Assembly (NCBI RefSeq): GCF_003991155.1
Contig: NZ_CP031293.1
Length of the DNA stretch: 64,000 nucleotides
Direction: 5' to 3' (one strand)
Source: Escherichia coli
GTDB taxonomy: Bacteria > Pseudomonadota > Gammaproteobacteria > Enterobacterales > Enterobacteriaceae
Part shown: positions 18,788-45,951 of the stretch, piece by piece
Layout of the letters: each line of letters opens with the position of its first letter
How positions within the stretch are numbered: the stretch's first letter is position 1
The notes under the pieces: model-generated
What the model saw: the letters and a program-made list of their open reading frames with translations, nothing else
The model's database searches: none
Told to the model about the DNA's origin: nothing
Translations under genes and position numbers: made by a program

Positions 18788-21700
18788 ATGCATCAGCCTC
18801 CCGTTCGCTTCACTTACCGCCTGCTGAGTTACCTTATCAGTACGATTATCGCCGGGCAGCCGTTGTTACCGGCTGTGGGGGCCGTCATCACCCCACAAAA
18901 CGGGGCTGGAATGGATAAAGCGGCAAATGGTGTGCCGGTCGTGAACATTGCCACGCCGAACGGGGCCGGGATTTCGCATAACCGGTTTACGGATTACAAC
19001 GTCGGGAAGGAAGGGCTGATTCTCAATAATGCCACCGGTAAGCTTAATCCGACGCAGCTTGGTGGACTGATACAGAATAACCCGAACCTGAAAGCGGGCG
19101 GGGAAGCGAAGGGTATCATCAACGAAGTGACCGGCGGTAAGCGCTCACTGCTGCAGGGCTATACGGAAGTGGCCGGCAAAGCGGCGAATGTGATGGTTGC
19201 CAACCCGTATGGTATCACCTGTGACGGCTGTGGTTTTATCAACACGCCGCACGCGACGCTCACCACAGGCAAACCTGTGATGAATGCCGACGGCAGCCTG
19301 CAGGCGCTGGAGGTGACTGAAGGCAGTATCACCATCAATGGCGCGGGCCTGGACGGCACCCGGAGCGATGCCGTATCCATTATTGCCCGTGCAACGGAAG
19401 TGAATGCCGCGCTTCATGCGAAGGATTTAACTGTCACTGCAGGCGCTAACCGGATAACTGCAGATGGTCGCGTCAGTGCCCTGAAGGGCGAAGGTGATGT
19501 GCCGAAAGTTGCCGTTGATACCGGCGCGCTCGGTGGAATGTACGCCAGGCGTATTCATCTGACCTCCACTGAAAGTGGTGTCGGGGTTAATCTGGGTAAC
19601 CTTTATGCCCGCGAGGGCGATATCACCCTGGATGCCAGCGGCAGACTGACTGTCAACAACAGTCTCGCCACGGGGGCCGTCACTGCAAAAGGTCAGGGCG
19701 TCACCTTAACCGGCGACCATAAAGCGGGAGGTAACCTGAGCGTCAGCAGCCGGAGCGATATCGTTCTCAGCAATGGAACGCTTAACAGCGACAAGGACCT
19801 CAGCCTGACCGCCGGCGGCAGAATCACTCAACAGAATGAAAAACTGACTGCCGGCCGGGATGTAACGCTTGCCGCGAAAAACATCACACAGGATACCGCC
19901 AGCCAGATTAACGCGGCCCGCGATATCGTGACTGTCGCCAGTGACACGCTGACAACACAGGGACAGATAACCGCCGGGCAGAATCTCACGGCCAGCGCCA
20001 CCACGCTGACACAGGACGGAATATTGCTGGCGAAAGGTCATGCGGGACTCGATGCCGGCACGCTGAATAACAGTGGTGCTGTTCAGGGGGCTTCCCTGAC
20101 GCTCGGCAGTACAACGCTCAGCAACAGTGGCTCCCTGCTCAGTGGCGGTCCCCTGACCGTGAATACCCGCGACTTTACCCAGAGCGGCCGCACTGGCGCG
20201 AAGGGCAAAGTGGATATCACGGCCAGTGGGAAACTGACCAGTACAGGTTCGCTGGTGAGCGATGATGTACTGGTGCTGAAGGCGCAGGATGTGACACAGA
20301 ACGGTGTGCTGTCCGGCGGCAAAGGGCTGACGGTCAGTGCGCAGGCGCTGAGCTCCGGTAAAAAATCGGTCACCCACAGCGATGCTGCGATGACGCTGAA
20401 TGTGACAACAGTGGCGCTGGACGGGGAAAACAGTGCCGGTGACACCCTCCGGGTTCAGGCAGACAAACTGAGTACCGCAGCGGGCGCACAGCTTCAGAGC
20501 GGTAAAAATCTCAGCATCAACGCCAGAGATGCACGTCTTGCAGGTACGCAGGCAGCACAACAGACCATGGCGGTGAACGCCAGTGAAAAGCTCACCCACA
20601 GCGGGAAAAGCAGCGCCCCGTCGCTCAGCCTCAGTGCGCCGGAACTGACCAGCAGCGGTGTGCTTGTTGGTTCCGCCCTGAATACACAGTCACAGACCCT
20701 GACCAACAGTGGTCTGTTGCAGGGGGAGGCCTCACTCACCGTTAACACACAGAGGCTTGATAATCAGCAGAACGGCACGCTGTACAGTGCTGCAGACCTG
20801 ACGCTGGATATACCGGACATCCGCAACAGCGGGCTTATCACCGGTGATAATGGTTTAACGTTAAACACTGCCTCCCTCAGCAATCCGGGAAAAATCATCG
20901 CTGACACGCTGAACGTCAGGGCGACCACGCTGGATGGTGATGGTCTGTTGCAGGGCGCCGGTGCACTGGCGCTTGCAGGCGACACCCTCTCACAGGGCCG
21001 TAACGGACGCTGGCTGACGGCGGGCGACCTCTCCCTCCGGGGTAAAACACTGCATACCGCAGGGACCACGCAGGGACAGAATCTCACCGTGCAGGCGGAC
21101 AGATGGGCGAACAGTGGTTCCGTGCTGGCAACCGGTAACCTTACTGCTTCGGCAACCGGTCAGTTGACCAGTACCGGCGATATCATGAGCCAGGGTGACA
21201 CCACGCTGAAAGCAGCCACCATGGACAACCGGGGCAGTCTGCTTTCGGCCGGCACGCTCTCCCTTGATGGAAACTCACTGGATAACAGCGGCACTGTCCA
21301 GGGTAACCATGTCACGATTCGCCAGAACAGTGTCACCAACAGTGGCACGCTCACCGGGATAGCCGCGCTGACGCTTGCCGCCCGTATGGCATCCCCTCAA
21401 CCTGCGCTGATGAATAACGGAGGTTCATTGCTGACCAGCGGCGATCTGACAATCACCGCAGGCAGTATTACCAGTTCCGGACACTGGCAGGGCAAACGGG
21501 TGCTGATCACCGCAGACAGTCTGGCAAACAGCGGGGCGATCCAGGCGGCTGACAGCCTGACTGCACGTCTGACGGGTGAGCTCGTCAGCACAGCGGGCAG
21601 CAAAGTCACCTCGAACGGTGAAATGGCGCTCAGTGCACTGAATTTAAGCAACAGCGGACAATGGATTGCAAAAAATCTGACCCTGAAGGCGAACTCACTG

Positions 21701-24700
21701 ACCAGTGCGGGTGACATCACCGGTGTGGATACTCTCACGCTCACGGTGAATCAGACGCTGAACAATCAGGCGAACGGAAAACTGCTCAGTGCAGGTGTGC
21801 TGACGCTGAAGGCAGACAGTGTCACAAACGACGGGCAATTACAGGGAAATGCCACCACCATCACGGCAGGACAACTCACAAACGGCGGGCATCTGCAGGG
21901 CGAAACGCTGACGCTGGCCGCCTCCGGTGGCGTGAACAACCGTTCCGGTGGTGTTCTGATGAGCCGGAATGCACTGAATGTCAGTACTGCGACCCTGAGT
22001 AACCAGGGCACGATACAGGGTGGTGGCGGGGTTTCCCTGAACGCCACAGACCGTCTGCAGAACGACGGCAAAATCCTTTCCGGCAGTAACCTCACGCTGA
22101 CGGCGCAGTTGCTGGCGAACACCGGCAGCGGACTGGTACAGGCTGCCACCCTGCTGCTGGATGTGGTGAATACTGTCAACGGCGGACGCGTACTTGCCAC
22201 CGGCAGTGCCGACGTTAAAGGAACCACGCTGAATAATACCGGTACGCTTCAGGGGGCGGACCTGCTGGTGAATTACCACACATTCAGCAACAGCGGTACC
22301 CTGCTGGGAACCTCCGGGCTTGGCGTCAAGGGCAGTTCACTGCTGCAAAATGGTACAGGGCGGCTGTACAGTGCAGGCAACCTGCTGCTTGACGCTCAGG
22401 ACTTCAGTGGTCAGGGGCAGGTGGTGGCCACCGGTGATGTCACACTGAAACTGATTGCTGCCCTCACGAATCATGGTACCCTGGCCGCAGGGAAAACCCT
22501 TTCCGTCACGTCGCAAAATGCCATCACCAACGGCGGTGTGATGCAGGGTGATGCCATGGTGCTCGGTGCCGGAGAGGCATTCACCAACAATGGAATGCTG
22601 ACTGCCGGTAAAGGCAACAGTGTTTTCAGCGCACAGCGTCTTTTCCTTAACGCACCGGGTTCACTTCAGGCCGGTGGCGATGTGAGTCTGAACAGCCGGA
22701 GTGATATCACCATCAGTGGTTTTACCGGCACGGCAGGCCGTCTGACAATGAATGTGGCCGGTACCCTGCTGAACAGTGCGCTGATTTATGCGGGGAATAA
22801 CCTGAAGCTGTTTACAGACCGTCTGCATAACCAGCATGGTGATATCCTGGCCGGCAACAGTCTGTGGGTACAGAAGGATGCTTCCGGCGGTGCAAACACA
22901 GAGATTATCAATACCTCCGGGAATATTGAGACGCATCAGGGCGATATTGTTGTAAGGACCGGGCATCTTCTGAACCAGCGGGAGGGATTTTCTGCCACAA
23001 CAACAACCCGGACTAACCCCTCATCCATTCAGGGAATGGGAAATGCTCTGGTTGATATTCCCCTTTCCCTTCTTCCTGACGGCAGCTATGGCTATTTCAC
23101 CCGTGAAGTTGAAAATCAGCACGGTACGCCCTGCAACGGGCACGGGGCATGCAATATCACAATGGATACGCTTTATTATTACGCTCCGTTTGCTGACAGT
23201 GCCACACAGCGCTTTCTCAGCAGCCAGAACATCACAACAGTAACCGGTGCTGATAATCCGGCAGGCCGCATTGCGTCAGGGCGTAATCTTTCTGCTGAGG
23301 CTGAACGACTGGAAAACCGGGCGTCATTTATCCTGGCGAATGGGGATATCGCACTTTCGGGCAGAGAGTTAAGCAATCAGAGCTGGCAGACGGGGACAGA
23401 GAATGAATATCTGGTATACCGCTACGACCCGAAAACGTTTTACGGTAGCTATGCCACAGGCTCTCTGGATAAACTGCCCCTGCTGTCACCGGAATTTGAA
23501 AACAATACCATCAGATTTTCACTGGATGGCCGGGAAAAAGATTACACGCCCGGTAAGACGTATTATTCCGTTATTCAGGCGGGCGGGGATGTTAAGACCC
23601 GTTTTACCAGCAGTATCAATAACGGAACAACCACTGCACATGCAGGTAGTGTCAGTCCGGTGGTCTCTGCACCGGTACTGAATACGTTAAGTCAGCAGAC
23701 CGGCGGAGACAGTCTGACACAGACAGCGCTGCAGCAGTATGAGCCGGTGGTGGTTGGCTCTCCGCAATGGCACGATGAACTGGCAGGTGCCCTGAAAAAT
23801 ATTGCCGGAGGTTCGCCACTGACCGGTCAGACCGGTATCAGTGATGACTGGCCACTGCCTTCCGGCAACAATGGATACCTGGTTCCGTCCACGGACCCGG
23901 ACAGTCCGTATCTGATTACGGTGAACCCGAAACTGGATGGTCTCGGACAGGTGGACAGCCATTTGTTTGCCGGACTGTATGAGCTTCTTGGAGCGAAACC
24001 GGGTCAGGCGCCACGTGAAACGGCTCCGTCGTATACCGATGAAAAACAGTTTCTGGGCTCATCGTATTTTCTTGACCGCCTCGGGCTGAAACCGGAAAAA
24101 GATTATCGTTTCCTGGGGGATGCGGTCTTTGATACCCGGTATGTCAGTAACGCGGTGCTGAGCCGGACGGGTTCACGTTATCTCAACGGACTGGGTTCAG
24201 ACACGGAACAGATGCGGTATCTGATGGATAACGCGGCCAGACAACAGAAAGGACTGGGATTAGAGTTTGGTGTGGCGCTGACAGCTGAACAGATTGCTCA
24301 GCTTGACGGCAGCATACTGTGGTGGGAGTCAGCCACCATCAACGGACAGACAGTCATGGTCCCGAAACTGTATCTGTCGCCGGAAGATATCACCCTGCAT
24401 AACGGCAGCGTTATCAGCGGGAACAACGTGCAACTTGCGGGCGGCAATATCACCAACAGCGGCGGCAGCATCAACGCACAGAACGACCTCTCGCTCGACA
24501 GTTCCGGCTATATCGACAACCTGAATGCGGGGCTGATAAGCGCGGGCGGTAGCCTGGACCTGAGCGCCATCGGGGATATCAGCAATATCAGCTCAGTCAT
24601 CAGCGGTAAAACCGTACAACTGGAAAGCGTGAGTGGCAACATCAGCAATATCACCCGGCGTCAGCAATGGAATGCGGGCAGTGACAGCCAATATGGTGGT

Positions 24701-27700
24701 GTGCATCTCAGCGGTACGGACACCGGTCCGGTTGCGACCATTAAAGGCACTGATTCACTTTCGCTGGATGCAGGGAAAAACATTGATATTACCGGGGCAA
24801 CGGTCTCGTCCGGTGGAGACCTTGGAATGTCTGCGGGTAATGATATCAACATTGCCGCAAACCTGATAAGTGGGAGCAAAAGTCAGTCCGGTTTCTGGCA
24901 CACTGATGACAACAGTTCATCATCCACCACCTCACAGGGCAGCAGCATCAGCGCCGGCGGTAACCTGGCGATGGCTGCAGGCCATAATCTGGATGTCACG
25001 GCATCCTCTGTTTCTGCCGGGCACAGCGCCCTGCTTTCTGCAGGTAACGACCTGAGTCTGAATGCAGTCAGGGAAAGCAAAAACAGTCGCAACGGCAGGT
25101 CAGAAAGTCATGAAAGCCACGCAGCTGTGTCCACGGTGACAGCGGGCGATAACTTCCTCCTTGTTGCCGGTCGTGATATTGCCAGTCAGGCTGCCGGTAT
25201 GGCTGCGGAAAATAACGTGGTCATCCGGGGCGGACGTGATGTGAACCTGGTGGCAGAGTCTGCCGGCGCAGGCGACAGCTATACGTCGAAGAAAAAGAAA
25301 GAGATTAACGAGACAGTCCGTCAGCAGGGAACGGAAATCGCCAGCGGTGGTGACACCACCGTCAACGCAGGACGGGATATCACCGCTGTTGCGTCATCCG
25401 TTACCGCAACCGGCAATATCAGCGTGAATGCCGGTCGTGATGTTGCCCTGACCACGGCGACAGAAAGTGACTATCACTATCTGGAAACGAAGAAAAAAAG
25501 CGGAGGTTTTCTCAGTAAGAAAACCACCCGCACCATCAGTGAGGACAGTGCCACCCGTGAAGCAGGCTCCCTGCTGTCGGGGAACCGCGTGACCGTTAAC
25601 GCCGGTGATAACCTGACGGTAGAGGGTTCGGATGTGGTGGCTGACCGGGATGTGTCACTGGCGGCGGGTAACCATGTTGATGTTCTTGCTGCCACCAGTA
25701 CAGATACGTCCTGGCGCTTTAAGGAAACGAAGAAATCCGGTCTGATGGGTACCGGCGGTATTGGTTTCACCATTGGCAGCAGTAAGACAACGCACGACCG
25801 GCGCGAGGCCGGGACAACGCAGAGTCAGAGTGCCAGCACCATCGGCTCCACTGCCGGTAATGTCAGTATTACCGCGGGCAAACAGGCTCATATCAGCGGT
25901 TCGGATGTGATTGCGAACCGGGATATCAGCATTACCGGTGACAGTGTGGTGGTTGACCCGGGGCATGACCGTCGTACTGTGGACGAAAAATTTGAGCAGA
26001 AGAAAAGCGGGCTGACGGTTGCCCTTTCCGGCACGGTGGGCAGTGCCATCAATAATGCGGTTACCAGTGCACAGGAGACGAAGGAGAGCAGTGACAGCCG
26101 TCTGAAAGCCCTGCAGGCCACAAAGACAGCGCTGTCTGGTGTGCAGGCCGGACAGGCTGCGACAATGGCCTCCGCAACCGGTGACCCGAATGCGATGGGA
26201 GTCAGCCTGTCGCTCACCACCCAGAAATCGAAATCACAACAACATTCTGAAAGTAACACAGTATCCGGCAGTACGCTGAATGCCGGGAATAATCTGTCTG
26301 TTGTCGCAACCGGTAAAAACAGGGGCGATAACCGCGGAGATATTGTGATTGCCGGAAGCCAGCTTAAGGCCGGTGGTAACACAAGCCTGGATGCCGCGAA
26401 TGATATTCTGTTGAGTGGCGCCGCAAACACACAAAAAACAACGGGCAGGAACAGCAGCAGTGGCGGTGGCGTGGGTGTCAGTATCGGTGCCGGTGGTAAC
26501 GGTGCCGGTATCAGCGTCTTTGCCGGCGTTAATGCGGCAAAAGGCAGCGAGAAAGGTAACGGTACTGAGTGGACTGAAACCACAACAGACAGCGGTAAAA
26601 CCGTCACCATCAACAGTGGTCGGGATACGGTACTGAACGGTGCTCAGGTCAACGGCAACAGGATTATCGCCGATGTGGGCCACGACCTGCTGATAAGCAG
26701 CCAGCAGGACACCAGTAAGTACGACAGTAAACAGACCAGCGTGGCTGCCGGCGGCAGTTTTACCTTTGGCTCCATGACCGGCTCAGGTTACATCGCTGCC
26801 TCCCGGGATAAGATGAAGAGCCGCTTTGACTCCGTTGCTGAACAAACCGGAATGTTTGCCGGTGATGGTGGCTTCGACATTACAGTGGGCAGACATACCC
26901 AACTGGATGGTGCGGTGATTGCCTCCACTGCCACACCGGATAAAAACCACCTGGATACCGGAACGCTGGGGTTCAGTGACCTTCACAACGAAGCGGATTA
27001 TAAAGTCAGTCACAGTGGAATCAGTCTGAGCGGTGGTGGCAGCTTCGGGGATAAATTTCAGGGTAACATGCCGGGTGGCATGATATCCGCCGGAGGTCAC
27101 AGCGGACATGCGGAAGGAACGACTCAGGCCGCAGTGGCAGAAGGCACTATCACCATCCGGGACAGGGACAATCAGAAGCAGAATCTGGCGAACCTGAGCC
27201 GTGACCCTGCGCACGCTAATGACAGTATCAGCCCGATATTTGACAAGGAGAAAGAGCAGAGGCGTCTGCAGACAGTGGGGCTTATCAGTGACATAGGCAG
27301 TCAGGTGGCGGATATTGCGCGTACACAGGGAGAACTGAATGCGTTGAAGGCCGCGAAGGAAGCAACCGGCGAAACACTTCCTGCTAATGCAACAGAGAAA
27401 CAACGTCAGGAATATCTTGCGAAACTGCGTGACACGCAGGCTTACAGGAATGAAATGGCGAAGTATGGTACCGGCAGTGAAATTCAGCGGGGTATCCAGG
27501 CCGCGACAGCCGCGCTTCAGGGACTGGCGGGTGGTAATTTAGCGGGTGCTCTGGCCGGAGCTTCTGCACCGGAACTGGCGCATCTGCTGAAATCAACAGA
27601 AAAAGACCCGGCAGTAAACGCCATTGCTCACGCCATTCTGGGCGGTACAGTAGCGGCAATGCAGGGTAATAATGTTGCTGCTGGTGCAGCAGGCGCAGCA

Positions 27701-28654
27701 ACGGGAGAGCTGGCAGCCAGAGCGATTGCCGGAATGCTGTATCCGGGAGTGAAGCAGTCAGACCTCAGTGAAGAGCAGAAGCAGACGATAAGTACGCTGG
27801 CAACTGTGTCAGCAGGGCTGGCCGGCGGTCTAACCGGAAACAGCACCGCATCAGCAGCAGTGGGAGCACAGAGCGGGAAGAATGCTGTTGAGAATAACTA
27901 CCTGAGCGTGTCTGAAAAGACAGAACTTGAGATAGCAAAACAGACGCTTAAAAACAGTAAAGATCCGGCAGAGCGTGAAAAGGCACAGCAGAAATATGAT
28001 GCATTGCTTGAAAAAGATATTGCCAGTGATAAGGAGGTTATTGCTGCCTGTAGTAATGGTAATGCGAGTAGTTCAGCGTGTGCCAGCGCAAGACTGAAAG
28101 TTATTGCGTCGAAAGAAGGGTACGAAGATGGCCCTTATAACTCGAAATACAGCCAGCAATACGCTGATGCGTATGGTCAGATAGTCAATCTCCTCGATAT
28201 CACCAGTGTTGATGCACAGAATCAGCAGCAGGTGAAAAACGCCATGATTAACTATTTCATGGTCACCAAAGGGGTGGATCGTCAGACCGCAGAAAGCTAC
28301 ACCGAAACAACGCAGGGCTTGGAGATCATTGCGGCTTCGGTAACGCCTCTTATAGGGCAAGCTGCATCAAATAAATTAAGCTACCTTGGTATTGGGAAAA
28401 AGATATCCTTTGATGGTGATTTTTATACTGTAGATGGAATGAAATTCAGCAAAAGTTATTATGAGAAATTATGGGAGCAAGGCAGACCTGCGCCATTCGT
28501 GCAAGCAAGAGAAGTGTTGAATAGCAATCCAAAAATTGAGCCGGATCCTAGAGGCGCACCTGGCTACTTAAGATATGAAGGTGCAGGTCTTGAAATGATC
28601 TATAACCCGAAAACGGGACAAGTTGGTCATATTCAACCAGTCAAGGTTAAATAA
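18788..28654 (+). CDS. cdiA: Contact-dependent growth inhibition exoprotein CdiA (3288 aa)
   Basis: N-terminal two-partner-secretion transport domain ([27 protein letters not shown]), long filamentous-haemagglutinin-type repeat tract, glycine-rich pre-toxin region and the VENN motif ([15 protein letters not shown]) about 255 aa from the C-terminus. Confidence 0.9.
27887..28654 (+). other. CdiA-CT toxin region (VENN to stop); enzymatic class unassigned
   Basis: VENN codons at 27887..27898, in frame with cdiA. The final domain (...[33 protein letters not shown]...GHIQPVKVK) matches no toxin I can name and does not end in GYGI. Confidence 0.7.
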
Positions 28655-28667
28655 AAAGAGGAAGTAA

Positions 28668-28988
28668 ATGGATATTTGGCCTGAATTTCAACGAGATCTT
28701 GAGATGTATCGAGATGTTGTTTTATCAATAAAACGTAACCTTCGGTTGTATGAGGAGTGTATTGAATCGTTAGTTCATCAGATCGGAAGCACCAATTTTG
28801 ATAATGCGCAGCCTCTATTTGATGACCTCTTTCGTATGCAATCTGAACTTGCTACTATGTTATACAAATATGAATATAAGCCAGGAAAAAGGATACAAGA
28901 TTTAATATATCATCTGGACAGGGATGATTTTTACTCAAGAAAATATTGGCATAAAAAATTCAGTGATGGATTGGCATGGCCTGAATAA
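28668..28988 (+). CDS. cdiI: Putative CdiI immunity protein cognate to the CdiA-CT
   Basis: 106-aa ORF starting 13 bp after the cdiA stop with an AGAGGAAG ribosome-binding site; visibly more AT-rich than cdiA, as expected for an exchangeable toxin/immunity cassette. The assignment is positional. Confidence 0.7.
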   Translation: MDIWPEFQRDLEMYRDVVLSIKRNLRLYEECIESLVHQIGSTNFDNAQPLFDDLFRMQSELATMLYKYEYKPGKRIQDLIYHLDRDDFYSRKYWHKKFSDGLAWPE

Positions 28989-29081: not shown

Positions 29082-29642
29082 TTGTGCAACCAATTCAATG
29101 AGATCGCTTCTATGCCTGCTCGACAAGTATGTCAGAATTTTTTCCACGATGCGTTAGCACCGTTTCACAAATACCGACAAAATGCTTTGCTGGATGCCAC
29201 CATCGCTCTCATCAATGGCGCATCACTGACGTTGACCAGCATCGGGCGTTATTTACCCGGCTTGGCTCGGGTCAAAAATAAAATCAAACGCGTTGACCGA
29301 CTGCTCGGTAATGAATCTCTTCACCGCGATATCCCACTGATTTTCAATAATATTATTGCCATGCTGACTAGCCAGCTATCTCTTTGTGTCATCGCCGTTG
29401 ACTGGAGTGGATATTCATCTCAGGAGCATCATGTGCTCCGCGCCAGCCTGCTCTGCGATGGATGCTCGCTTCCCCTGTTAAGCTGGGTAGTCCCGTCAGA
29501 AAAACAGCAGAACTCGCAGATACAAAAAAACTTCCCAGATGCCCTTGCCGAGGCTGTAAACCCTGTGGCCAGAGTCATAATAGTTACCGATGCGGGTGTT
29601 CTTACCCCCTTATTTCCAGACAGGGGCTGTATCTTAAGTTAA
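29082..29642 (+). pseudogene. IS4-family (IS10-like) transposase, N-terminal fragment only
   Basis: RVKNKIKRVDRLLGNESLH ... VIAVDWSG ... VLRASLLCDG ... IIVTDAGV parallels the IS10 transposase N-terminus (KHNIKRIDRLLGN ... IVLVDWSD ... LRASVALHGR ... IVSDAGF). The frame ends after 186 aa where an IS3-family fragment begins. Confidence 0.6.
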
Positions 29643-29760
29643 CATTACCCGCTGACGTCGATATTCTCGCGGAGAGCGATAACCCAACGCACTATGCGGA
29701 TGGTTTTCATTGTAATGCTCGATCGCCACTGCAAGGTTTATATTGCCTGTTCATCGATCA
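29637..29760 (-). mobile_element. IS3-family transposase (OrfB) C-terminal fragment
   Basis: The minus strand encodes ...[35 protein letters not shown], the conserved C-terminal signature of IS3-family integrase-core transposases. Upstream frames are broken by stops. Confidence 0.55.
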
Positions 29761-30219
29761 TCAATCTCGTGAACTGTGAGACGAAACAGCGTACACTGTT
29801 TGAACGTATCTACTTTTCCCAATACTGGGCGAAGGGAGATGTTATTGCGAAGCGCGCTCCAATTAGTCAGTGGGAACCTTATTCGGAAGAGTCACTGCTT
29901 GTCATCATCGTCACCAGCGTCTGTCGTATTAAAGTCGCGATGCTAAAACCTGAACCTCCCAGAGATCCCCATATCCCGCTAATGGGGGATTTTAACTAAA
30001 ACTTAGCGCTATCGCTGCATATTGTAACTATCCCGCATCACGTATGCATAAATTATGACGCCATACGGGGAACAAATACACAGAGGAAGAAAAAGATTAG
30101 ATTGGTTTTAAGGGATTTTTTATCATAAATGGCGCTGCTAAAATTATGAGATTATCGAAGATAAAATTCTTGATCATACATAAAAGGCCTCCTGAATTAA
30201 ATCAAGAGGCGTATAGTTT

Positions 30220-31338
30220 TTATATTACTGATGTATGTTTAATGATCTCACTGATTTTCACTTTCCTGTCCTGCGATCTTGAAAGAGTGGCAGCATCAGC
30301 AGTAGCAATCGCCGACATGGCCGCCTCACCATTGAGAAGGTCAATATAATCTTCTTCAGGTTTTGCACCACTGAGGATATTATGGAGGAATAACGTCTCC
30401 TTTCTTATTAAACTGGCAAGCCATAATGGTGTTTTTTTTCCAGGATGACCATATGCTATAGCGCCATCCATTTCTGAGGTCATATTGCCTTTCCGACGAT
30501 CATCATCTTCTTCTTGTGTTTCATGGACCAAAAAATGCTTTGTCTGACCGCCAATCCTAAGTGACCCTGCTGTTTCTTGCATATCAATTTTAATAGAGCC
30601 TTTAGTTCCATTGATGATGACATAATGTTCTGGCCAGTTAAATGCACTCCCCCACTCTAAGGTTGCTAGTTTTCCTGACGGGAATTCCAAGGTCATAAAT
30701 AACATATCATCTTCATTGCCAAACCCTAGACCAGAATGAGCTAAATTTCCACCAATCATAGTAACCGTCTCTGGTATTTCTCCAAGTAAATGCTGAACAC
30801 AATCTAACTCATGTATATGATGATATAGATGTCCACCAGATTGTTCTTTCATCTTTTTCCAGGAAAGTCTCTCCTGTTTGTTTTCCCAGCCATTTCTCTT
30901 GGTATGACATGATAATATTTCGCCGATAACACCTTCTTTAATTAACTTCCGTGCATATTGAACTCCATTGAAAAAATTCATAATATGCCCAGCCATAAAG
31001 GTCACACCAGCTTCTTTACACGCTTTGACCATATCCACACAATCTTCATAACTTAATGCAATTGGTTTTTCACAAAAAACATGCTTCTTATTCTTTGCTG
31101 CTTTAATTACTGGATCTTTATGCAGATAATTTGGGGTGGCTACGATCACACAATCGACTAATTTACTTGAAACTAAAGCATCCAAGCTTGACATATTGAT
31201 ACATTGCAATTCACGGGCAATAGTTTCTCCATTTTCAGGATCGTATACACATGTAATTTTTGCATTATCATGCATATTCATAAAACGAGCTAATTCAGCG
31301 CCAAAGTATCCAACACCAACAACGCCATAATTAATCAT
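30220..31338 (-). CDS. yjhC: Gfo/Idh/MocA-family NAD(P)-dependent oxidoreductase, YjhC (NanY)-like
   Basis: 372 aa with N-terminal Rossmann motif (GVVGVGYFG); GGAGG ribosome-binding site; immediately downstream of a 405-aa NanT-like MFS gene. Both lengths match my recollection of YjhB/YjhC. Confidence 0.7.
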   Translation of the reverse strand: MINYGVVGVGYFGAELARFMNMHDNAKITCVYDPENGETIARELQCINMSSLDALVSSKLVDCVIVATPNYLHKDPVIKAAKNKKHVFCEKPIALSYEDCVDMVKACKEAGVTFMAGHIMNFFNGVQYARKLIKEGVIGEILSCHTKRNGWENKQERLSWKKMKEQSGGHLYHHIHELDCVQHLLGEIPETVTMIGGNLAHSGLGFGNEDDMLFMTLEFPSGKLATLEWGSAFNWPEHYVIINGTKGSIKIDMQETAGSLRIGGQTKHFLVHETQEEDDDRRKGNMTSEMDGAIAYGHPGKKTPLWLASLIRKETLFLHNILSGAKPEEDYIDLLNGEAAMSAIATADAATLSRSQDRKVKISEIIKHTSVI

Positions 31339-31349
31339 AAAGCCTCCAA

Positions 31350-32567
31350 TTATTTAGCCACGGATAGTTTATAAATTTTACCTGGAATATCAAAACCAAC
31401 TAACAAAATTAATAAGGCAGAGAATGCAACCGTAACAATGAATAATGAAACACCTAAGCCATAATATCTAGAAATGTATGTAGCTAATACAGGTGCGGCC
31501 ATTCCTCCAGTTGCCCCTAAGTTATAAATAAGACCGGTCCCTAATCCTCTTAATTTTGTTGGAAAGTAATCATATATAAATTTTGGAACCAACCCTGCAA
31601 TACCTAAATTTGTAAACATTAATCCAAAGAGACATAATCCTATAAGAAAAGAGTTTTTCACAGAAATAAAAAAAAGAGGACAAAGGAAAATAAATGAAGT
31701 TATTAGACCAACTACAAATGTTTTTTTTACACCAATCTTATCACCAACAAAACCAAAAAATATTGTACCTGTCAGTGTACCTAAACCTGCTATTGTCATC
31801 AGAGTTGAAATAACCACTGTATTAACTCCATTATCTGCTAGGTAGGAAGGAAGTAGTCCGTTTATCGGCCAGTTTGCACCAAATAGACAAAAACAGACGA
31901 GGAAAACGATCATAGAGATTGAAAGATGTGGTTTTCTGAAGACAGACAAAAATGTTGATTTATCCTTATATTTATCTTCAATCCACTCCTGACTTTCTGG
32001 AGCACTTTTTCTGATCCAAAGAACTAGTAAAACTGGTAACAGGCCTATAAAAAAAGAGTTTCTCCATCCATATACTTCAGCAAACTGAGGGATTATTTGT
32101 GCCGCAATAATATTTCCAACAGAAAAACCACTTACCAAAAAAGCACTAGCTTTAGATTGAAGATTTTTAGGCCAACTTTCTACTGCATAAGTTGAAGCAC
32201 ATGCATATTCACCAGACATCCCTAAGCCAACAATAAAACGGCAAACTGCGAGCATATATAAGTTTGTAGCAATACCGCTAAGGCCTGTTCCGACTGAGTA
32301 AATGATAATTGCCCACATCATCATTGGCTTACGCCCATATTTATCAGCCATGGCACCAAAAAAACCGCCCCCAATAGGTCTGGCTATGAAGGCCACTGTC
32401 CCTATTAAAGTGGCCTGAATATCCGTAATGCCAAGATCTGCTTTTATAATATGAAGAATGTAAAATATCATCATAAAATCAAAGCCATCAAATACATATC
32501 CAAGCCATGCAGAAAAAAGAGCTTTCCGTTGTGGTGGATTAACTTGTTTATACCATACTGTTGCCAT
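31350..32567 (-). CDS. yjhB: MFS transporter of the sialic acid (NanT) family, YjhB (NanX)-like
   Basis: Start placed at ATG 32567 (MATVWYKQ...) with an AGGAAA ribosome-binding site, giving 405 aa. Major-facilitator-superfamily signature; a NanR-type operator lies upstream. Confidence 0.7.
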   Translation of the reverse strand: MATVWYKQVNPPQRKALFSAWLGYVFDGFDFMMIFYILHIIKADLGITDIQATLIGTVAFIARPIGGGFFGAMADKYGRKPMMMWAIIIYSVGTGLSGIATNLYMLAVCRFIVGLGMSGEYACASTYAVESWPKNLQSKASAFLVSGFSVGNIIAAQIIPQFAEVYGWRNSFFIGLLPVLLVLWIRKSAPESQEWIEDKYKDKSTFLSVFRKPHLSISMIVFLVCFCLFGANWPINGLLPSYLADNGVNTVVISTLMTIAGLGTLTGTIFFGFVGDKIGVKKTFVVGLITSFIFLCPLFFISVKNSFLIGLCLFGLMFTNLGIAGLVPKFIYDYFPTKLRGLGTGLIYNLGATGGMAAPVLATYISRYYGLGVSLFIVTVAFSALLILLVGFDIPGKIYKLSVAK

Positions 32568-32976
32568 ATTTGTTTCCTGTGTTATTCTAATACAGCCCTT
32601 AAAGTAAATATTAGGGAGCCTCAACAATATCCAGCAATAATTATATTGTCTTCAAATACGCCAGTACTATTAATTGTTATCAATACCTAATCAGTACAAT
32701 CTTTTTCTCCATTTCTTCTTAACATATTTCACGCTATGAAAGATAAAACTGATACCCACCTTCAGTTTTGGGTCACCATCAAAAAAAATGTTCGCCAGAT
32801 ATTCCACCACTGGCACAGTTCAACCCTGCTTCAAAAATTGACTTATTCATTGTGCTCATTTTCGTAGTCCGTTCAGGTTGAATAAAACTCCCTTAGTCAA
32901 ATGAGGAAAGACTGAGAGGTTATTACTTTAGCTTACGTTATAGCTGTTTTCCTTTGCAGTATTTCTTTGCTTTTCT

Positions 32977-33000
32977 GTATACCTTTATACCTGTTATACC
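32977..33000. promoter_or_regulatory. NanR-type operator: three GGTATA hexamers (minus strand reads GGTATAACAGGTATAAAGGTATAC)
   Basis: Read directly from the sequence, about 410 bp upstream of the yjhB-like start. The tri-repeat GGTATA arrangement is the known NanR binding architecture. Confidence 0.5.
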
Positions 33001-33597
33001 AGATCAAAAAACAAGCAATCCACATAACAAAACGCGTTTTGTTACTGATGTCACAAATTGAGCATATTTTTGTATCTGATAGTTTGTTACAAACACCACA
33101 ACCAAGATGCCTATTTCGTTTCAGCATCAACTGTTAAATTATCTGGTTGCCAACGAGAATACTGAGCTTTTTTGTCCCTAAGACTGACCGTCAACGCAAC
33201 AATCTTTGACTGTTTGACATTGTCATGCCCGCAGGCCAGCGGATCTAAAGACATCAGACTGCTTGCATCAGCCAGTTGCGTATCTGGCTATGTCCCTTAA
33301 TTGGTAAGGGTTCGAGGAACTCAACATTAACGCATTTTTCAGCGCATCACCGACAGTGTATATGAACGATTGCACTCTGACGATGGTTGATTTATTTGGT
33401 TGCATAGGGGCTAGCTAGTCTGGTACCGGAGGCTGGATCTGAAGTACTGACCCTAGGAATAACGCCGGGCTGACTCATATTCTGACCCATTGTCAGCCCG
33501 CGTGTTTACTGCTCTAGCTCATTTCCTGTTGTCAGGCATTCAATTCCCAACTGCAGGTTATGGCCCGGTGAGCGAACACCTGACGGCAGGTATCACT

Positions 33598-33775
33598 CAC
33601 CCGGAGAAGGTAAATCCCTCAAGGGGCAGCAACTCTGCCAGTCGCTCCTCCGGCCACTCCGGCAGACGTGTCAGGACGTCTGTCAGCCAGGCATGTGGCT
33701 CCAGACCGTTGCGTTTCGCGGTTTCCAGCAAGCTCATTATTTGCGCAGCGCGTTCTCCCGCCATACGACAGCCGT
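33598..33775 (-). mobile_element. IS66-family transposase (TnpC) C-terminal fragment
   Basis: The minus strand encodes ...GERAAQIMSLLETAKRNGLEPHAWLTDVLTRLPEWPEERLAELLPLEGFTFSG*, paralleling the C-terminus of the intact IS66 TnpC in this window (...[40 protein letters not shown]...). Confidence 0.5.
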
Positions 33776-33797
33776 CAGAGCAGTGCGTCAGCGGGCG

Positions 33798-35642
33798 GCA
33801 GTTTTACCTGGGGTGCTGGCAGAGGTGGTTATGGCAGCGCCAGCCGCGATAATATCCACAGCAACTATGATTCCGTTAATGAGCAGAGCGGTATTTTCGC
33901 AGGCCGGGGTTATTTTGATATCACTGTGGGGAATCACACTCAGCTCGATGGTGCGGTGATTGCTTCGACAGCACCTGCCGACAGGAACTCGCTGGACACC
34001 GGTACTCTGGGCTGGTCGGATATCCATAACCAGGCAGACTATAAAGCCAGCTATACCGGAATCAGTTTATCGGGTGGCTCAGGGATGTCAGCCAGCCAGA
34101 TGGTGGCCTCAAATGCAATAGCCGGTGCGGCGAACGCACTTACCGGTATGTCCGGCAGCAGTGGACATGCTGAAGGTACCACGTCATCCGCCATCAGCGG
34201 CGGAAATCTCATTATCCGTGATAAGGAGAGTCAGAAGCAGGATATTGCCGGGCTCAGCCGGGACCCGGAAAACGCCAACGGCAGCATTGCACCGATATTT
34301 GACAAGGAGAAAGAACAGAAGCGTCTGCAGGAAGCGCAGGTTATCAGCCAGATTAGCGGTCAGATGAGTAATATCGTAATGACGTATGGCGAAACTGAAG
34401 CGATGAAAGCAGCCTGGAAAGAGCATCCTGGCATGAGCGATGCACAGTTGCGGGAGACTCCGGAATACAGAGAGGTCATGAAAGGCTACGGTACGGGCAG
34501 TTCGCCGCAGATGGTGGTACAGGCCATCACGGGCGTGCTGGGCGGACTGAATGCAGGGAACCCGGGGCAGGTATTGGCGGGCGGTCTGAATCCGGCAGTG
34601 GCACAGCTTATAAAACAGTCCACCGGCGATAACCGGGAAGCAAACCTGATGGCTCACGCAGTCTGGGGTGCACTTGCCGCACAACTGGGCGGAAACAATG
34701 CGGCTTCCGGTGCTGCTGGGGCATTCAGTGGTGAACTTGCAGCCTGGTATATCATTGATAACTACTACGGTGGTCGTACCGATAACCTGAGTGAACAGGA
34801 ACGTCAGCAAATCAGCATGCTGGCCACCATTGCCTCTGGTATTGCGGGGGGACTTGCAGGCAACAGTACGGCGTCTGCCGGTACGGGTGCACAGGCAGGA
34901 ACTCGGCTGAAAACAATATGCTGAACGTGATAGCCACTGAAACAGCAGCTAATACGGCAGCAGCAATAGCTGGTGCTACAGGTAATGCCAGTAAGGATAC
35001 CGGGAATGATAATAGCTGGGATACCGGTGGTGTTACGCTGGCTACGGGAACAGTGTGCTGTACGTGATCCGAGTCGCGATGGCACCCGAGGACCGGGGCA
35101 TGTGCTGAATGGCGACAATACAGACGGAAACAAACAGCCGAATCTGGGCAAAGACGTAGCGAGCGCAACGGATAAGGATAAAGCTGAGCTTGGTGGTGCA
35201 GGTGCTGGAATACCGGGGGGGATGGGGACCGGATAATGAAGAAAAAGCCCGTCATCAGGAGGTTCAGCAACAACGATTTGATGAACTGAGTAAAATATAT
35301 GATAAAAGTCACCCGGCCGGAGAGTTAACGGTGGATGGGCAGACTATCAGGCAGAGTTCGGTAAGTAACCGTTATGGTACGACGAAAGTGTTTGAAAGCC
35401 AGACTTTGACGGATAAACAGATCCACAATTACGCACAGCAACTGGCAGGCGATACACCGCTGAAAGAGGTAAAATCGGGAATCTACACGTCTAAACTATC
35501 AGATGGTTCGGTAATAACACTTAGAAACATATCTACATCAGAAGGTCAGACAGGCGCTCGTTGGACTATAGATATTCGTAATAACCAAAAGCTTACTGAA
35601 CTGGGGAATAAATATTCACGTGTGGAGATTAAGTTCAAATGA
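33798..35642 (+). pseudogene. Orphan cdiA-CT module 1: displaced 3' fragment of a cdiA gene with frameshifts
   Basis: DNA and protein homology to the pre-toxin region of the main cdiA begins at about 33798 ([51 protein letters not shown]). The VENN-equivalent (AENN, 34906..34917) lies in a different frame from the upstream ORF, and the toxin part is split over at least three frames. Confidence 0.6.
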
Positions 35643-35995
35643 TTACTGAGTTAAGTGAAAGAGAATACAAGGAGTTGACAGACGCTGCAGAGGGACAGAC
35701 TCTTGATGCTATTTTGTGTTATTCAGTTCCTGATATTCACCCTGCAGAGTTTAGTTTTGCAGATAGAAGAGAAATCTTTTTTTGGGCATTAACCCGTCTT
35801 CTGAAAGAAGGGCGTATCAAACTCGCCAAGCACGGTAAGTTTTTGGAAGGAAGTGTTGACGAGCAGGTTGAGCGTTTTCGACAGGCATTTCCGAAAACAG
35901 AAGAAGAGATGGAAGACGGTATCTGGTTTTTTGATGAGAGTTGTCCGGGGGGGGCTGTTTGGGTGCTTGAAGATGGCTCTCTCGAATGGACCTGA
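35639..35995 (+). CDS. Putative orphan CdiI immunity protein (module 1)
   Basis: Intact 118-aa ORF whose ATG overlaps the stop of the orphan toxin frame (ATGA overlap), the arrangement typical of toxin/immunity pairs. Acidic small protein; no family recognised. Confidence 0.55.
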
Positions 35996-37112
35996 TAACC
36001 CCTTCACAGCGCAGGATGCGGCGCAGCGAGCGTATAACAACGATATGGCGGCCTCAGTTTTTGGTACCGGAGGGAACGATACAGGCTACAACGGCAGCGG
36101 TACAGGGACTGGCCGGCGGTAATCTGAGTGCAGCCCTGGCAGGTGGTGCAGCACCGTATCTGGCCGAAGTGGTGAAAACCATGACCACAGACCCGGTTAC
36201 CGGTGAGGTGAATAAGGCTGCAAATGTGGCTGCTCATGCCGTGGTGAATGCCGCACTGGCTGTGGCACAGGGAAATAACGCTCTTGCCGGTGCTGTAGGT
36301 GCAGCCACCGGCGAGGTGGTGGGAATGATAGCCACACAGATGTACGGTAAGCCGGTGAGTGAACTGAGCGAGACAGAGAAGCAGACGGTCTCGACACTGG
36401 CAACGGTTGCTGCTGGCCTGGCCGGTGGTCTGGTGGGCGACTCGGGGCTTCAGCGGTAGCCGGCGCACAGTCAGGTAAGACGACTGTTGAGAATAATTTA
36501 CTTGGCGGTAGTGAAGATGCTCAGGCTGCGTGGATACGCCAGCATGGTATCGACATGGCAACATGTGCAGAAAACCCTTCTGGTGCCGCCTGCCAGAAAG
36601 CAATGAATGAGAGGGATGCTGTAGGGCTGGCTCTGGCAACAGGTACAGTGGCACTACTCCCCGGTAGTGCTCAGGCTGTGTGGGGACTGGGAGCAAGTGC
36701 GAATGCTGGTATCAGTTATCTGGCTGATGGTACTGTAGATCCGACAAACGCAGCCATTGCAGGCTGGGTGAATGTGTTCAGCATGGGTAATGGCCTGGCG
36801 GGGACTGTGGGCTGGAATGCGGCAGGTGGTGCGCTGGGTAACTGGATTGACAACAAAGATCCTCTGTCTGGTGCAATTTCAAATGGTATCGGTTCTGCTG
36901 CCGGGTATGGTATCGGTAAAGGTATTACTTGGGGGACAGATAATATTACGAATGCTGTAGGAAAATGGGTGACAAATGGCTGGGATCCTAAGTACGATCC
37001 AACATGGATAAAATATGCTGAAGTAAATCGTAACGATATCATTCGAGAAGGCATGAAACCGAGCAATGTTCTTGGAACTGCTGGAGATATTGGCGGTTCT
37101 ATAGGATCCTAG
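35996..37112 (+). pseudogene. Orphan cdiA-CT module 2: cdiA 3' fragment with a frameshift; glycine-rich predicted membrane-active C-terminal domain; no immunity gene follows
   Basis: Homology to the main cdiA pre-toxin region ([28 protein letters not shown] ... [20 protein letters not shown]) runs up to a VENN motif (TTVENNLLGG) reached only after a frameshift near 36455. The C-terminal roughly 185 aa are Gly/Ala-rich with GxxxG-like spacing. Confidence 0.5.
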
Positions 37113-38079: not shown

Positions 38080-39444
38080 TCAGTGTTCTTTTATATATGC
38101 GGCTCTGTGACGTTCAAGTTCAATTGCACCACGATGTGATAACCAGCAGAAAATGATGCAACAAATAATACCGCAGCCAAGAAGATAAAATCCGCCATGC
38201 CAGCCAATATGATCGACCATAATACCAAACAGGCTGGTGCCCAGAGACGCACCGAAGATATAGCTCATAAAACCGCGTAAGCCTACTGCAGAACCAACAG
38301 CAAAGCTGGGAACGATCTCCATAGTCTGAACGGAAGCCAGAAATTGTGGAACGTAAATCAGGCAACCAACAATGGCAGCAAAAATTGTCACCATAAACAG
38401 CGATTCACTTTTCCAGTAGCCAATCAGGCAAATGAAAATCAGCGCCATACAAATCATCGCCAATGGCATACGACGCCCTTTAAACAGTTTGTCTGACAAC
38501 CAACCGGCAAGTAGCGTGGAAGGGATTGCGGCCCATTCAAAAAATAAAAACGCGACGCTCATTTGTTCTTTAGAAAAATGTTTCACCGTCAGCAGATAAA
38601 TAGGCAACCAGCTAATCATCCCGAAGCGTACCATGTATACAAATACGTCAACCAGTGAGACATACCAGGCATTTTTATTGCGTAATACATAAGTGCAGAA
38701 AATCTGAAAGGCACTCATGTTTTCTGGTGCTTTTACCGTCTGTCGGGTATTCAGGACGACTTTTTCTTCCGGCATCATCTCTTCCAGAGAGGGTAGACCT
38801 TCCTGACGTGGGGAACCTTTACCGAGAATCAGCACAATTACCGCAAAAACGATGGCCACGCAGGCCGGAACGATATAGCTCGCACTTTGCCAGTGCTCGC
38901 TGCCGAGTAGGGCAAAAGCGGCACCAACAATGGGTGCAACAATACCACCACCGACGTTATGAGAGATATTCCAGAAAGCACCAACCCGACCACGCTCCCG
39001 GCGAGGGAACCAGTTAGCAATAGTGATGAAAGAAGGACCAACGCCCATTCCCTGGAAAAGACCATTCAGAATAACCAATACCGCAAAAATCCAGAATGCG
39101 GTGCTGAATCCCAGGCCAACGTTAACGATGGCACATAACACCAGCCCACACGCCATAAAGACTTTCGGACTGGCTTTATCGGCAAGGCTACTCATCACTC
39201 CTTTGCTGATACCATAGGCGATAAGCATACAGCTACTCAGTACGCCAATTTGTGTGGCGCTGAGATCTAATTGCTCTTTAAGATAAGGCGTCGATAAGGT
39301 GAAATTATTACGCACGATATAGTATGCAAGATACCCCAGAAATACACTAAGTAACGCCTGCATACGATAGCGACGATATGTCACCTGAATTTTCTCCGCC
39401 GGAACACTATCCGCCGCTTGCCCCGTTTTAAATATTGATAACAT
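38080..39444 (-). CDS. pgtP: Phosphoglycerate transporter (organophosphate:phosphate antiporter, UhpT/GlpT family)
   Basis: 454-aa MFS of the UhpT/GlpT type, divergent from a pgtC-pgtB-pgtA-like three-gene regulatory operon; AGGTGA ribosome-binding site. Confidence 0.85.
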   Translation of the reverse strand: MLSIFKTGQAADSVPAEKIQVTYRRYRMQALLSVFLGYLAYYIVRNNFTLSTPYLKEQLDLSATQIGVLSSCMLIAYGISKGVMSSLADKASPKVFMACGLVLCAIVNVGLGFSTAFWIFAVLVILNGLFQGMGVGPSFITIANWFPRRERGRVGAFWNISHNVGGGIVAPIVGAAFALLGSEHWQSASYIVPACVAIVFAVIVLILGKGSPRQEGLPSLEEMMPEEKVVLNTRQTVKAPENMSAFQIFCTYVLRNKNAWYVSLVDVFVYMVRFGMISWLPIYLLTVKHFSKEQMSVAFLFFEWAAIPSTLLAGWLSDKLFKGRRMPLAMICMALIFICLIGYWKSESLFMVTIFAAIVGCLIYVPQFLASVQTMEIVPSFAVGSAVGLRGFMSYIFGASLGTSLFGIMVDHIGWHGGFYLLGCGIICCIIFCWLSHRGAIELERHRAAYIKEH

Positions 39445-44854: not shown

Positions 44855-44907
44855 GTAAGCGCCTCATCTGAACCGTCTGGTCTGTTTCCTCCGGCTCCAC
44901 AAAAATA

Positions 44908-45932: not shown

Positions 45933-45951
45933 CCCGTTGTAAAGTGAGGAT

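Follow-up and report, generated by a model that had tools for sequence, protein, structure and literature searches.

Sequence evidence for a nanXY operon of the sialoregulon between cdi genes in a pheV island of Escherichia coli

Gene content and layout of the locus

The window, meaning the whole 64,000-nucleotide stretch of Escherichia coli DNA analyzed here, includes a pheV pathogenicity island that ends at an integrase and tRNA-Phe next to yqgA. Within this island lie two adjacent genes and a putative terminator:

31350..32567, minus strand: nanX (yjhB), MFS transporter for 2,7-anhydro-Neu5Ac, 405 aa (by homology; RefSeq nanX)
30220..31338, minus strand: nanY (yjhC), NAD-dependent 2,7-anhydro-N-acetylneuraminate hydratase, 372 aa (by homology)
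30187..30210, minus strand: hairpin resembling an intrinsic terminator, 9 pairs and then CTTTTATGT, 10 nt past the nanY stop codon

Both genes are read from the minus strand in the order nanX to nanY, with an 11-nt spacer and a GGAGG just 5′ of the nanY ATG; the tightly spaced pair has a single promoter region and is closed by the hairpin. The nanX ATG is at 32567; a mechanical list of open reading frames extends the gene to a TTG start, giving 425 aa. An initial annotation of this DNA had placed a 405-aa MFS transporter and a 372-aa Gfo/Idh/MocA enzyme downstream of a NanR operator, and all three elements were found, on the minus strand. The 3.2 kb of nanXY DNA is 100% identical in at least 19 RefSeq genomes among the matches listed, and nearly all of these copies are annotated nanX, nanY, and ythA; RefSeq uses the names nanX and nanY for the same DNA in many genomes. 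The pair is almost certainly a true nanXY (yjhBC) operon, a member of the E. coli sialoregulon that retains its native promoter and operator. Such an operon is already known: the K-12 counterpart has been characterized, and this copy is ordinary.

The NanX transporter and the NanY enzyme

NanX is identical to K-12 NanX (YjhB) at 400 of 405 positions, matches Pfam MFS_1, and scores 783.7 bits against the NCBIfam equivalog NF008963 (cut-off 637). A natural comparison is with NanT, the E. coli Neu5Ac:H+ symporter, which belongs to the same MFS sialate-symporter lineage (ST1). However, NanT has 496 aa, a central insertion that brings it to 14 helices, and Neu5Ac as its substrate, whereas NanX has 405 aa and 12 helices (PMC8461474) and is specific for 2,7-anhydro-Neu5Ac (PMC8461474, PMC10955332). 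When the window's NanX is aligned with K-12 NanT, identity is 35% with 57 gap positions, mostly in one central block, and the insertion that distinguishes NanT is missing. The NanT models are likewise missed (NF003024, 381.8 bits vs a cut-off of 604; TIGR00891, 263 bits vs 552.9), so NanX is a relative of NanT and not NanT proper.

NanY shares 367 of 372 residues with K-12 NanY (YjhC), matches the YjhC crystal structure PDB 6O15 at E = 4.9e-255, and carries the Pfam domains GFO_IDH_MocA and GFO_IDH_MocA_C. Its best NCBIfam match is inositol 2-dehydrogenase (IolG, TIGR04380), an identity that can be rejected at 120.3 bits against a cut-off of 355. Residues of NanY were equated with K93, K163, H175, and H178 of RgNanOx (PMC7535918) through a constant two-residue offset, and the corresponding K91, K161, H173, and H176, comprising the catalytic lysine, the HxxH motif, and a fourth lysine, are intact. 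The chemistry of NanY is shared by NanOx of Ruminococcus gnavus, which converts 2,7-anhydro-Neu5Ac to Neu5Ac in a reversible reaction that depends on NAD (PMC7535918); NanY matches the NanOx-type structures 6Z3B/6Z3C with E of about 1e-159. Organism and regulation differ in the R. gnavus system, and NanOx is paired there with an ABC transporter, SAT2, in place of an MFS protein.

The K-12 proteins have been demonstrated to import 2,7-anhydro-Neu5Ac and turn it into Neu5Ac (PMC7535918, PMC7315737, PMC10955332), and at 99% identity the proteins encoded here are predicted to do the same. Overall, NanY hydrates 2,7-anhydro-Neu5Ac, and in vitro Neu5Ac2en as well, in a redox-neutral reaction; the bound NAD+ is used transiently, leaving no net oxidoreduction (PMC7535918, PMC7315737). 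The proposal that the pair converts a sialic acid derivative thus stands, but its description as oxidoreductive does not.

Could the pair be a diverged paralog acting on another substrate, for example a different sialic acid derivative? The initial annotation had called it only nanXY-like, each protein differs from its K-12 counterpart at five residues, and NanY passes no NCBIfam equivalog model, its best, inositol 2-dehydrogenase, reaching 120 bits against 355. Against this, both proteins are 99% identical to those of K-12, the catalytic Lys and His residues are unchanged (PMC7535918), NanX lies above its equivalog cut-off, and RefSeq names the genes nanX and nanY. The non-coding flanks are conserved with K-12 as well, which indicates orthology. 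The chance of a paralog with another substrate is therefore negligible. The operon reading was correct and mere likeness understated it: these are 99% identical orthologs whose operator and promoter core are identical to those of K-12.

Operator, promoter, and leader

Upstream of nanX, the regulatory region contains the following elements:

32977..33000, minus strand: NanR operator GGTATAACAGGTATAAAGGTATAC, three GGTATA repeats (exact motif match)
33002..33005, unstranded: Dam site GATC, 1 bp from the operator on its upstream side (K-12 nanA and nanC have it too)
33040..33055, minus strand: CRP-like site TGTGACATCAGTAACA (read from sequence)
32568..32986, minus strand: predicted 5′ leader of about 419 nt, its start placed by -10/CRP geometry

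The three operator repeats are at 33000-32995, 32991-32986, and 32983-32978, with spacers of 3 nt and 2 nt. The window contains the motif GGTATAACAGGTATAAAGGTATAC a single time, and 100 dinucleotide-preserving shuffles did not produce it even when up to 2 mismatches were allowed; the whole 64 kb holds no other two-repeat GGTATA or NanR-like site. The three-hexamer operator named in the initial annotation is thus an exact motif where none is expected by chance. It is identical to the K-12 nanX operator, and the upstream region equals that of K-12 except for a few substitutions, with operator, GATC, and CRP-like site unchanged. At nanA, nanC, and yjhB, the GATC sites next to the NanR operator are reported to change in methylation with time (PMC5155068).

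Comparison with the other two NanR-controlled operons gives insight into the promoter itself. The stretch of GATC plus operator is identical at 30 of 30 positions to that of nanA (nanATEK-yhcH), and the CRP-like site lies inside a 77-nt block that is 84% identical (65/77) to the K-12 nanC (nanCMS) promoter and also aligns with the nanA upstream region. Both operons differ from nanXY in their downstream genes; in K-12 nanC the third repeat is GGTGCA. NanR-controlled promoters were reportedly mapped by Kalivoda 2003 and Kalivoda 2013. From this homology, we infer that the operator overlaps a CRP-dependent promoter. A candidate -10 hexamer, TATAAC (32998-32993), overlaps the first GGTATA repeat, and transcription would start at about 32986, as judged from the -10 and CRP geometry and from paralogy. 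The CRP-like site is centered about 61.5 bp upstream of that position, and CRP dependence of the promoter is likewise suggested by sequence. A simple sigma-70 consensus scan of the minus strand from 32568 to 33110 found no promoter, neither a second one nearer the ATG nor the putative CRP-dependent one. That the scan misses the latter is expected of an activator-dependent promoter with a weak -35, so its result weighs neither for nor against either promoter.

From the 3′ end of the operator to the nanX ATG the distance is 409 bp, and the possibility had been raised that the operator is too far from the true promoter. Since the nanA and nanC counterparts suggest that operator and promoter overlap, the 409 bp can be read as leader rather than as the sign of a misplaced operator. 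A long leader with the operator several hundred bp upstream of the ATG is shared with nanC, whereas in nanA the operator is only about 35 nt from the ATG. Relative to K-12, the leader has a few substitutions and, in a T-run, a single indel. An Rfam search of 29900-33800 with E up to 1 returned no match, and the fold of the leader (z-score +1.08) is no more stable than that of shuffled sequences; a structured RNA can thus be set aside. A MAFFT alignment hinted that homology between the nanX and nanC leaders continues past the operator; this was not significant by BLAST, which supports only the 77-nt core. Two small open reading frames, of 26 and 41 aa, are present in the leader.

A 4-kb cassette shared with K-12

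The operon is part of a larger block that K-12 carries near leuX:

29751..33706, unstranded: 4-kb cassette common with the K-12 leuX region (BLAST; GC 33-39%)
29694..29999, plus strand: yjhD-like ORF, surface-adhesin E family (Pfam Adhesin_E, E = 5.1e-9)
30053..30177, minus strand: ythA, a small gene, frameshifted in this allele (RefSeq annotation in strains Rb-3 and NGF-1)
33097..33108, unstranded: unoccupied IS4 target site (K-12 alignments overlap by 12 bp)
33597..33773, minus strand: IS66-family transposase C-terminal fragment, homolog of K-12 yjgZ (Pfam DDE_Tnp_IS66_C, E = 1.2e-18)
29112..29615, plus strand: IS4-family transposase fragment on the cassette's other side (RefSeq annotation)
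29634..29738, minus strand: IS3-type integrase-core fragment on the cassette's other side (RefSeq annotation)

The calls for ythA and the IS debris were transferred, with coordinates converted, from RefSeq annotation of DNA that is 99.997% identical over window positions 10100-44854. The cassette comprises a yjhD fragment, ythA, nanY, nanX, the promoter, and the IS66 fragment, which forms the promoter-side boundary and is called an incomplete transposase domain-containing protein by RefSeq. By BLAST, it is 98% identical to K-12 over 29751-33108 and 96% over 33097-33706, and the yjhD-like ORF is homologous to the K-12 yjhD pseudogene region. K-12 nanXY (b4279-b4280), the third operon of the NanR sialoregulon, has the same gene order and protein lengths, the same (GGTATA)3 operator, GATC, and CRP-like site, a corresponding leader and terminator, and corresponding downstream (ythA, yjhD) and upstream (IS66 fragment, yjgZ) neighbors. 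The differences are few: five residues in each protein; a ythA that is intact in K-12 but frameshifted here; the location, near leuX in K-12 but in the pheV island beside cdi genes here; and an IS4 element. The window thus adds the observation that the nanXY cassette is mobile between islands.

Its second addition is a view of the nanXY upstream region free of the IS4 insertion. The two K-12 alignments overlap at 33097-33108 and an IS4 (insG) is annotated between them, so the element inserted there in K-12 with duplication of 12 bp. In K-12 it lies 97 bp upstream of the operator and 42 bp upstream of the CRP-like site; here the site is empty. There is a slim chance that this uninterrupted upstream region makes regulation of nanXY differ from that in K-12. 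For instance, without the IS4 expression might rise or its switching might be tighter, in keeping with the performance of the NGF-1 promoter, the best of eight NanR reporters. Studies disagree on whether wild-type K-12 can use 2,7-anhydro-Neu5Ac for growth when it is neither induced beforehand nor deleted for nanR (PMC7535918 vs PMC7315737), and these conflicting reports might in part reflect the IS4 allele.

Regulation and proposed mechanism

A working model can be drawn from the published biochemistry, transport specificity, and NanR repression of nanXY together with the sequence and promoter identities computed here; NanR, NanATEK, and CRP are encoded outside the window. Function and NanR repression have been established in K-12 (PMC7535918, PMC7315737, PMC10955332), as has the NanR operator mechanism (PMC8012715), and NanR repression and Neu5Ac induction of K-12 nanXY are given in PMC7315737, citing Kalivoda 2013. 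In the absence of sialic acid, NanR dimers would bind the three GGTATA repeats cooperatively, and because the repeats overlap the -10 hexamer and start site of the CRP-dependent promoter, transcription would be blocked. Neu5Ac (and Neu5Gc in the reporter study) would weaken NanR–DNA binding, and the derepressed transcript would carry the leader of about 419 nt and end at the hairpin just past nanY. NanX, as a 12-helix MFS proton symporter related to NanT, would then import 2,7-anhydro-Neu5Ac, which is cut from mucins by intramolecular trans-sialidases of other gut bacteria such as Ruminococcus gnavus. NanY, with tightly bound NAD+ and a transient 4-keto intermediate, would hydrate it to Neu5Ac, which would enter the chromosomal NanATEK pathway.

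Support for sialic acid responsiveness, as put forward in the initial annotation, comes from strain NGF-1. Between 28600 and 39300 the window differs from NGF-1 at 19 positions, none of them within 31470-34427. A reporter built on the NGF-1 nanXY promoter, and thus on upstream DNA identical to the window, gave little background signal and, of eight reporters, was proportionally the most strongly activated by Neu5Ac (bioRxiv 10.1101/2024.10.23.619804).

This result also bears on whether the operon might be present yet effectively silent, or uncoupled from NanR, in its island. Possible causes include silencing of the AT-rich DNA by H-NS, disturbance by the IS fragments on either side, or a defect of the long leader. 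A GC content of 33-39%, that of the cassette, is typical of H-NS targets; IS debris lies on both sides, ythA is frameshifted, and the leader is long and without recognized function. However, the NGF-1 promoter with identical upstream DNA is inducible by Neu5Ac, albeit in a reporter inserted near glmS and not in the island (bioRxiv 10.1101/2024.10.23.619804), both reading frames are intact, and 100% identity is maintained in many genomes. A silent operon is highly improbable, and a working, NanR-regulated nanXY is preferred.

Distribution and significance

In E. coli, nanXY is an accessory trait of about 15 to 21% of strains; a genome-wide association study placed it in about 15% of isolates and found no host association (PMC10088187). 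With this operon, E. coli can cross-feed on 2,7-anhydro-Neu5Ac freed from mucins by other gut bacteria, and a role in mucosal fitness is plausible. The function, structure, regulator, and operator mechanism of nanXY are all published. The operon in the window matters little beyond correct annotation. A promoter taken from a strain that matches the window exactly in this upstream DNA already serves as an in vivo sialic acid biosensor.

The CDI neighborhood

On both sides of the cassette are genes or remnants of CDI systems:

18788..28988, plus strand: resident cdiA (3288 aa) and cdiI, flanking context (ORF list, RefSeq)
33764..34924, plus strand: cdiA fragment, 5′-truncated, ending in a VENN motif (PT-VENN, E = 6.9e-12)

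The pair does lie between a cdi locus and an orphan array, as was first described: cdiA (18788-28654) and cdiI (28668-28988) are on one side and VENN-containing cdiA fragments, beginning at about 33764 with the one listed, are on the other. This first downstream fragment has 64% DNA identity to the resident cdiA but about 92-95% to full-length cdiA of other strains, including that on the EC93 plasmid. The “orphan” derives from a different cdiA lineage, as a truncated remnant that ends at the IS66 fragment.

Other cdi-bearing E. coli islands (leuX, pheV, selC, aspV) are similarly mosaic and located at tRNA genes; in these, cdiBAI precedes a series of cdiA-CT fragments with transposase genes scattered among them (PMC4927057). 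The present island differs in having a metabolic operon between cdiI and the cdiA fragments, with no functional link to CDI shown. Such a link could take several forms: nanXY may have been recruited as cargo, may be co-regulated with cdi genes, or may be kept through CDI-mediated stabilization of the island. The position of the cassette between cdiI and cdiA remnants invites this reading, as does the occurrence of the full 7-kb arrangement in 63 complete genomes. A concatenated query representing an ancestral direct join of this cdiI to this orphan was found in 0 of 5,426 genomes, and CDI systems have been reported to stabilize islands that carry them (PMC4927057).

However, the same IS-bounded cassette, with the same IS66-fragment boundary, sits in the leuX region of K-12, whose annotation shows no cdi genes for about 10 kb on the upstream side or 5 kb on the downstream side. 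The cdi-flanked 7-kb form is limited to 63 genomes, compared with 1,131 that have at least 80% of the 3.2-kb query. The operon runs opposite to cdiBAI and has a promoter and a terminator of its own, and the downstream cdiA fragment is of another lineage and ends at IS debris, IS genes being common within orphan regions (PMC4927057). A tie between nanXY and CDI is accordingly very unlikely, and the earlier suggestion that CDI-linked DNA was assembled around metabolic cargo is not borne out. Given the same cassette in a region of K-12 with no cdi genes annotated nearby, the linkage is best read as island mosaicism. A weaker possibility is that a place inside a CDI-stabilized island keeps the otherwise patchy nanXY in B2 lineages.

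The two genes are not themselves CDI components: they have only MFS and Gfo/Idh/MocA matches and lie on the strand opposite to cdiBAI. VENN motifs are confined to the ORFs that start at 33668 and 35986.

Identity of the operon

The two genes are read from the minus strand, as are the operator and terminator around them, and the coordinates given in the initial annotation are accurate:

32567-31350, minus strand: nanX (yjhB), first ORF, 405 aa, ATG at 32567, Pfam MFS_1
31338-30220, minus strand: nanY (yjhC), second ORF, 372 aa, both Gfo/Idh/MocA domains by Pfam
30210-30187, minus strand: terminator-like hairpin 3' of nanY

Only 11 nt separate the genes, with GGAGG directly 5' of the nanY ATG. 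On sequence grounds the pair is nanX and nanY themselves, and the locus is an operon already known and fully characterised. The initial annotation recognised it correctly as nanXY-like, a reading that can be refined by comparison with K-12 MG1655, where 400/405 residues of NanX (b4279) and 367/372 of NanY (b4280) are identical. NanX passes the cut-off of the NCBIfam equivalog NF008963 (783.7 bits against 637) and scores under the NCBIfam cut-offs for the NanT subfamilies; E. coli NanT is 35% identical to it and has a central insertion that NanX lacks. The best structural match of NanY is 6O15, the crystal structure of YjhC (E = 4.9e-255); R. gnavus NanOx-type structures follow at ~1e-159. NanY retains K91, K161, H173 and H176, which are equated with the catalytic residues of NanOx (PMC7535918) on the assumption that the numbering differs by two throughout. 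Among the matches listed, at least 19 complete RefSeq E. coli genomes are 100% identical over positions 30100-33300 (3.2 kb), and nearly all of them are labelled nanX (MFS transporter), nanY (2,7-anhydro-N-acetylneuraminate hydratase) and ythA.

The function of the operon has been established in K-12, where yjhBC is one of three operons under NanR and both genes are needed for growth on 2,7-anhydro-Neu5Ac or Neu5Ac2en (PMC7535918; PMC7315737). YjhC converts 2,7-anhydro-Neu5Ac, and in vitro also Neu5Ac2en, to Neu5Ac; the reaction passes through a keto intermediate with the help of bound NAD+ and amounts to a net hydration (PMC7535918; PMC7315737). On its own, NanX takes up 2,7-anhydro-Neu5Ac, whereas Neu5Ac and Neu5Ac2en are not transported (PMC10955332).

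Operator and promoter

The NanR operator proposed upstream of the pair is confirmed: the window has a single copy of GGTATAACAGGTATAAAGGTATAC in its 64 kb, on the minus strand at 32977-33000. Dinucleotide-preserving shuffles gave zero matches to it, even at two mismatches. No further site with two GGTATA repeats was found in the window. From the ATG to ~110 bp past the operator, the region differs from K-12 by a few substitutions and one T-run indel only, none of which falls within the operator, the GATC beside it or the CRP-like site. In K-12, NanR controls two further operons, nanA and nanC, and both have the operator core: nanA shares TTGATCTGGTATAACAGGTATAAAGGTATA in full (30/30), and nanC shares 65 of the 77 nt (84%) that extend from the CRP-like site across the operator. 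One module (CRP-like site, GATC, operator; 32977-33055 in the window) is thus common to the three NanR-controlled promoters. In the window the coding cassette under its control is low in GC and apparently foreign, which suggests that the module was copied between loci.

The -10 hexamer is probably TATAAC, inside the first repeat (32998-32993), a placement that would put the transcription start near 32986. The CRP-like site, TGTGACATCAGTAACA (33055-33040), would then have its centre at -61.5, where class I CRP sites classically lie. This geometry fits the published account, in which the operator forms part of the promoter region and prevents transcription (PMC8012715), and under it the 409 bp between operator and ATG represent a long leader and not a misplaced operator. 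The leader of nanC is similarly long. That of nanX has no match in Rfam, and its predicted fold is no more stable than those of shuffled sequences (z = +1.08).

The reporter fusion that could assess the predicted sialic-acid response has essentially been done already. E. coli NGF-1 has the same cdi-flanked nanXY locus, with zero base differences from the window between 31470 and 34427, and its nanXY promoter was amplified and integrated in single copy near glmS (preprint, bioRxiv 10.1101/2024.10.23.619804). Among eight NanR reporters, its background was the lowest and its proportional activation by Neu5Ac the highest; Neu5Gc also induced it, whereas ManNAc and Neu5Ac2en did not (bioRxiv 10.1101/2024.10.23.619804). 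As the preprint has no nanR-mutant control, NanR dependence of nanXY rests on the K-12 work. In K-12, IS4 (insG) occupies a target upstream of nanX that is uninterrupted in the window, so the promoter of the published regulation studies is interrupted 42 bp 5' of the CRP-like site:

33097-33108: unoccupied IS4 target site, 12 bp, by comparison with K-12

The island and the cassette

E. coli Rb-3 is 99.997% identical to the window over 10100-44854. Its gene order runs yghD, kps capsule genes, CP4-type genes with Ag43, sugar-utilisation genes, cdiB, cdiA, cdiI, IS fragments, nanY, nanX, an IS66 fragment, cdiA-CT fragments, pgtPCBA, the pap operon with papG-III, an integrase, tRNA-Phe and yqgA. 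Judged by this order, the setting of nanXY is the pheV pathogenicity island, and the description of the operon as island-borne was correct. Within it lies a unit that the window has in common with K-12, and the IS4 insertion is the sole rearrangement between the two copies:

29751-33706: yjhD fragment, ythA, nanY, nanX, promoter and IS66 fragment (yjgZ homologue)

IS debris bounds this cassette on both sides, and its GC content of 33-39% compares with ~55% for the adjoining cdiA. Of 5,426 complete genomes, ~1,131 contain 80% or more of the 3.2-kb query, consistent with the ~15% of isolates reported to carry nanXY (PMC10088187), whereas the full 7-kb cdi-flanked arrangement occurs in 63 genomes only.

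Within the cassette, ythA (30053-30177, 3' of nanY) carries a frameshift, as RefSeq annotates it in near-identical DNA, and is intact in K-12. A yjhD-like ORF (29694-29999), a pseudogene in K-12, matches Pfam Adhesin_E, the surface-adhesin E family (E = 5.1e-9).

Relation to the CDI genes

The initial annotation placed nanXY between the cdi locus and the orphan cdiA fragments, which is correct, and inferred that CDI-linked DNA had been assembled around metabolic cargo, which is weak. The operon runs in the opposite direction to cdiBAI, with a promoter and a terminator of its own, and around the same cassette in the K-12 leuX region no annotated cdi gene lies within the stretch examined. The first orphan fragment (33764-34924) shares only 64% identity with the resident cdiA but ~92-95% with full-length cdiA genes of other strains, including the EC93 plasmid copy. 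Given these identities and its direct junction with the IS66 fragment, it looks like the truncated stump of a second cdi lineage, not a displaced module of the resident cdiA. Further CDI remnants follow:

34973-37112: whole stretch, with small ORFs, the two features below and a 185-aa ORF that has no Pfam match
35639-35995: DUF596 protein
35986-36459: second VENN fragment, annotated as frameshifted

IS-rich mosaic regions 3' of cdiI have already been described for islands with cdi (PMC4927057). A direct junction of this cdiI with this orphan was found in 0 of 5,426 genomes, and these genomes do not reveal in which order the parts came together. The simplest account is that nanXY is a passenger in a mosaic built by IS elements; it is possible that CDI stabilises its host island.

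Other features of the island

A complete pgtP/pgtCBA phosphoglycerate transport system (38080-44303), known mainly from Salmonella, follows the CDI remnants and precedes the pap operon. Relative to Rb-3, the window carries a 2.7-kb insertion at 44854-47554, whose ORFs (44908-45585 and 45952-47523) look like a putative IS66-type element. Finally, 61376-62549 has 91% identity with yjgX, a pseudogene of the K-12 leuX region, so that this region and the pheV island have more than the nanXY cassette in common; the Rb-3 counterpart is an intact phosphoethanolamine transferase gene.
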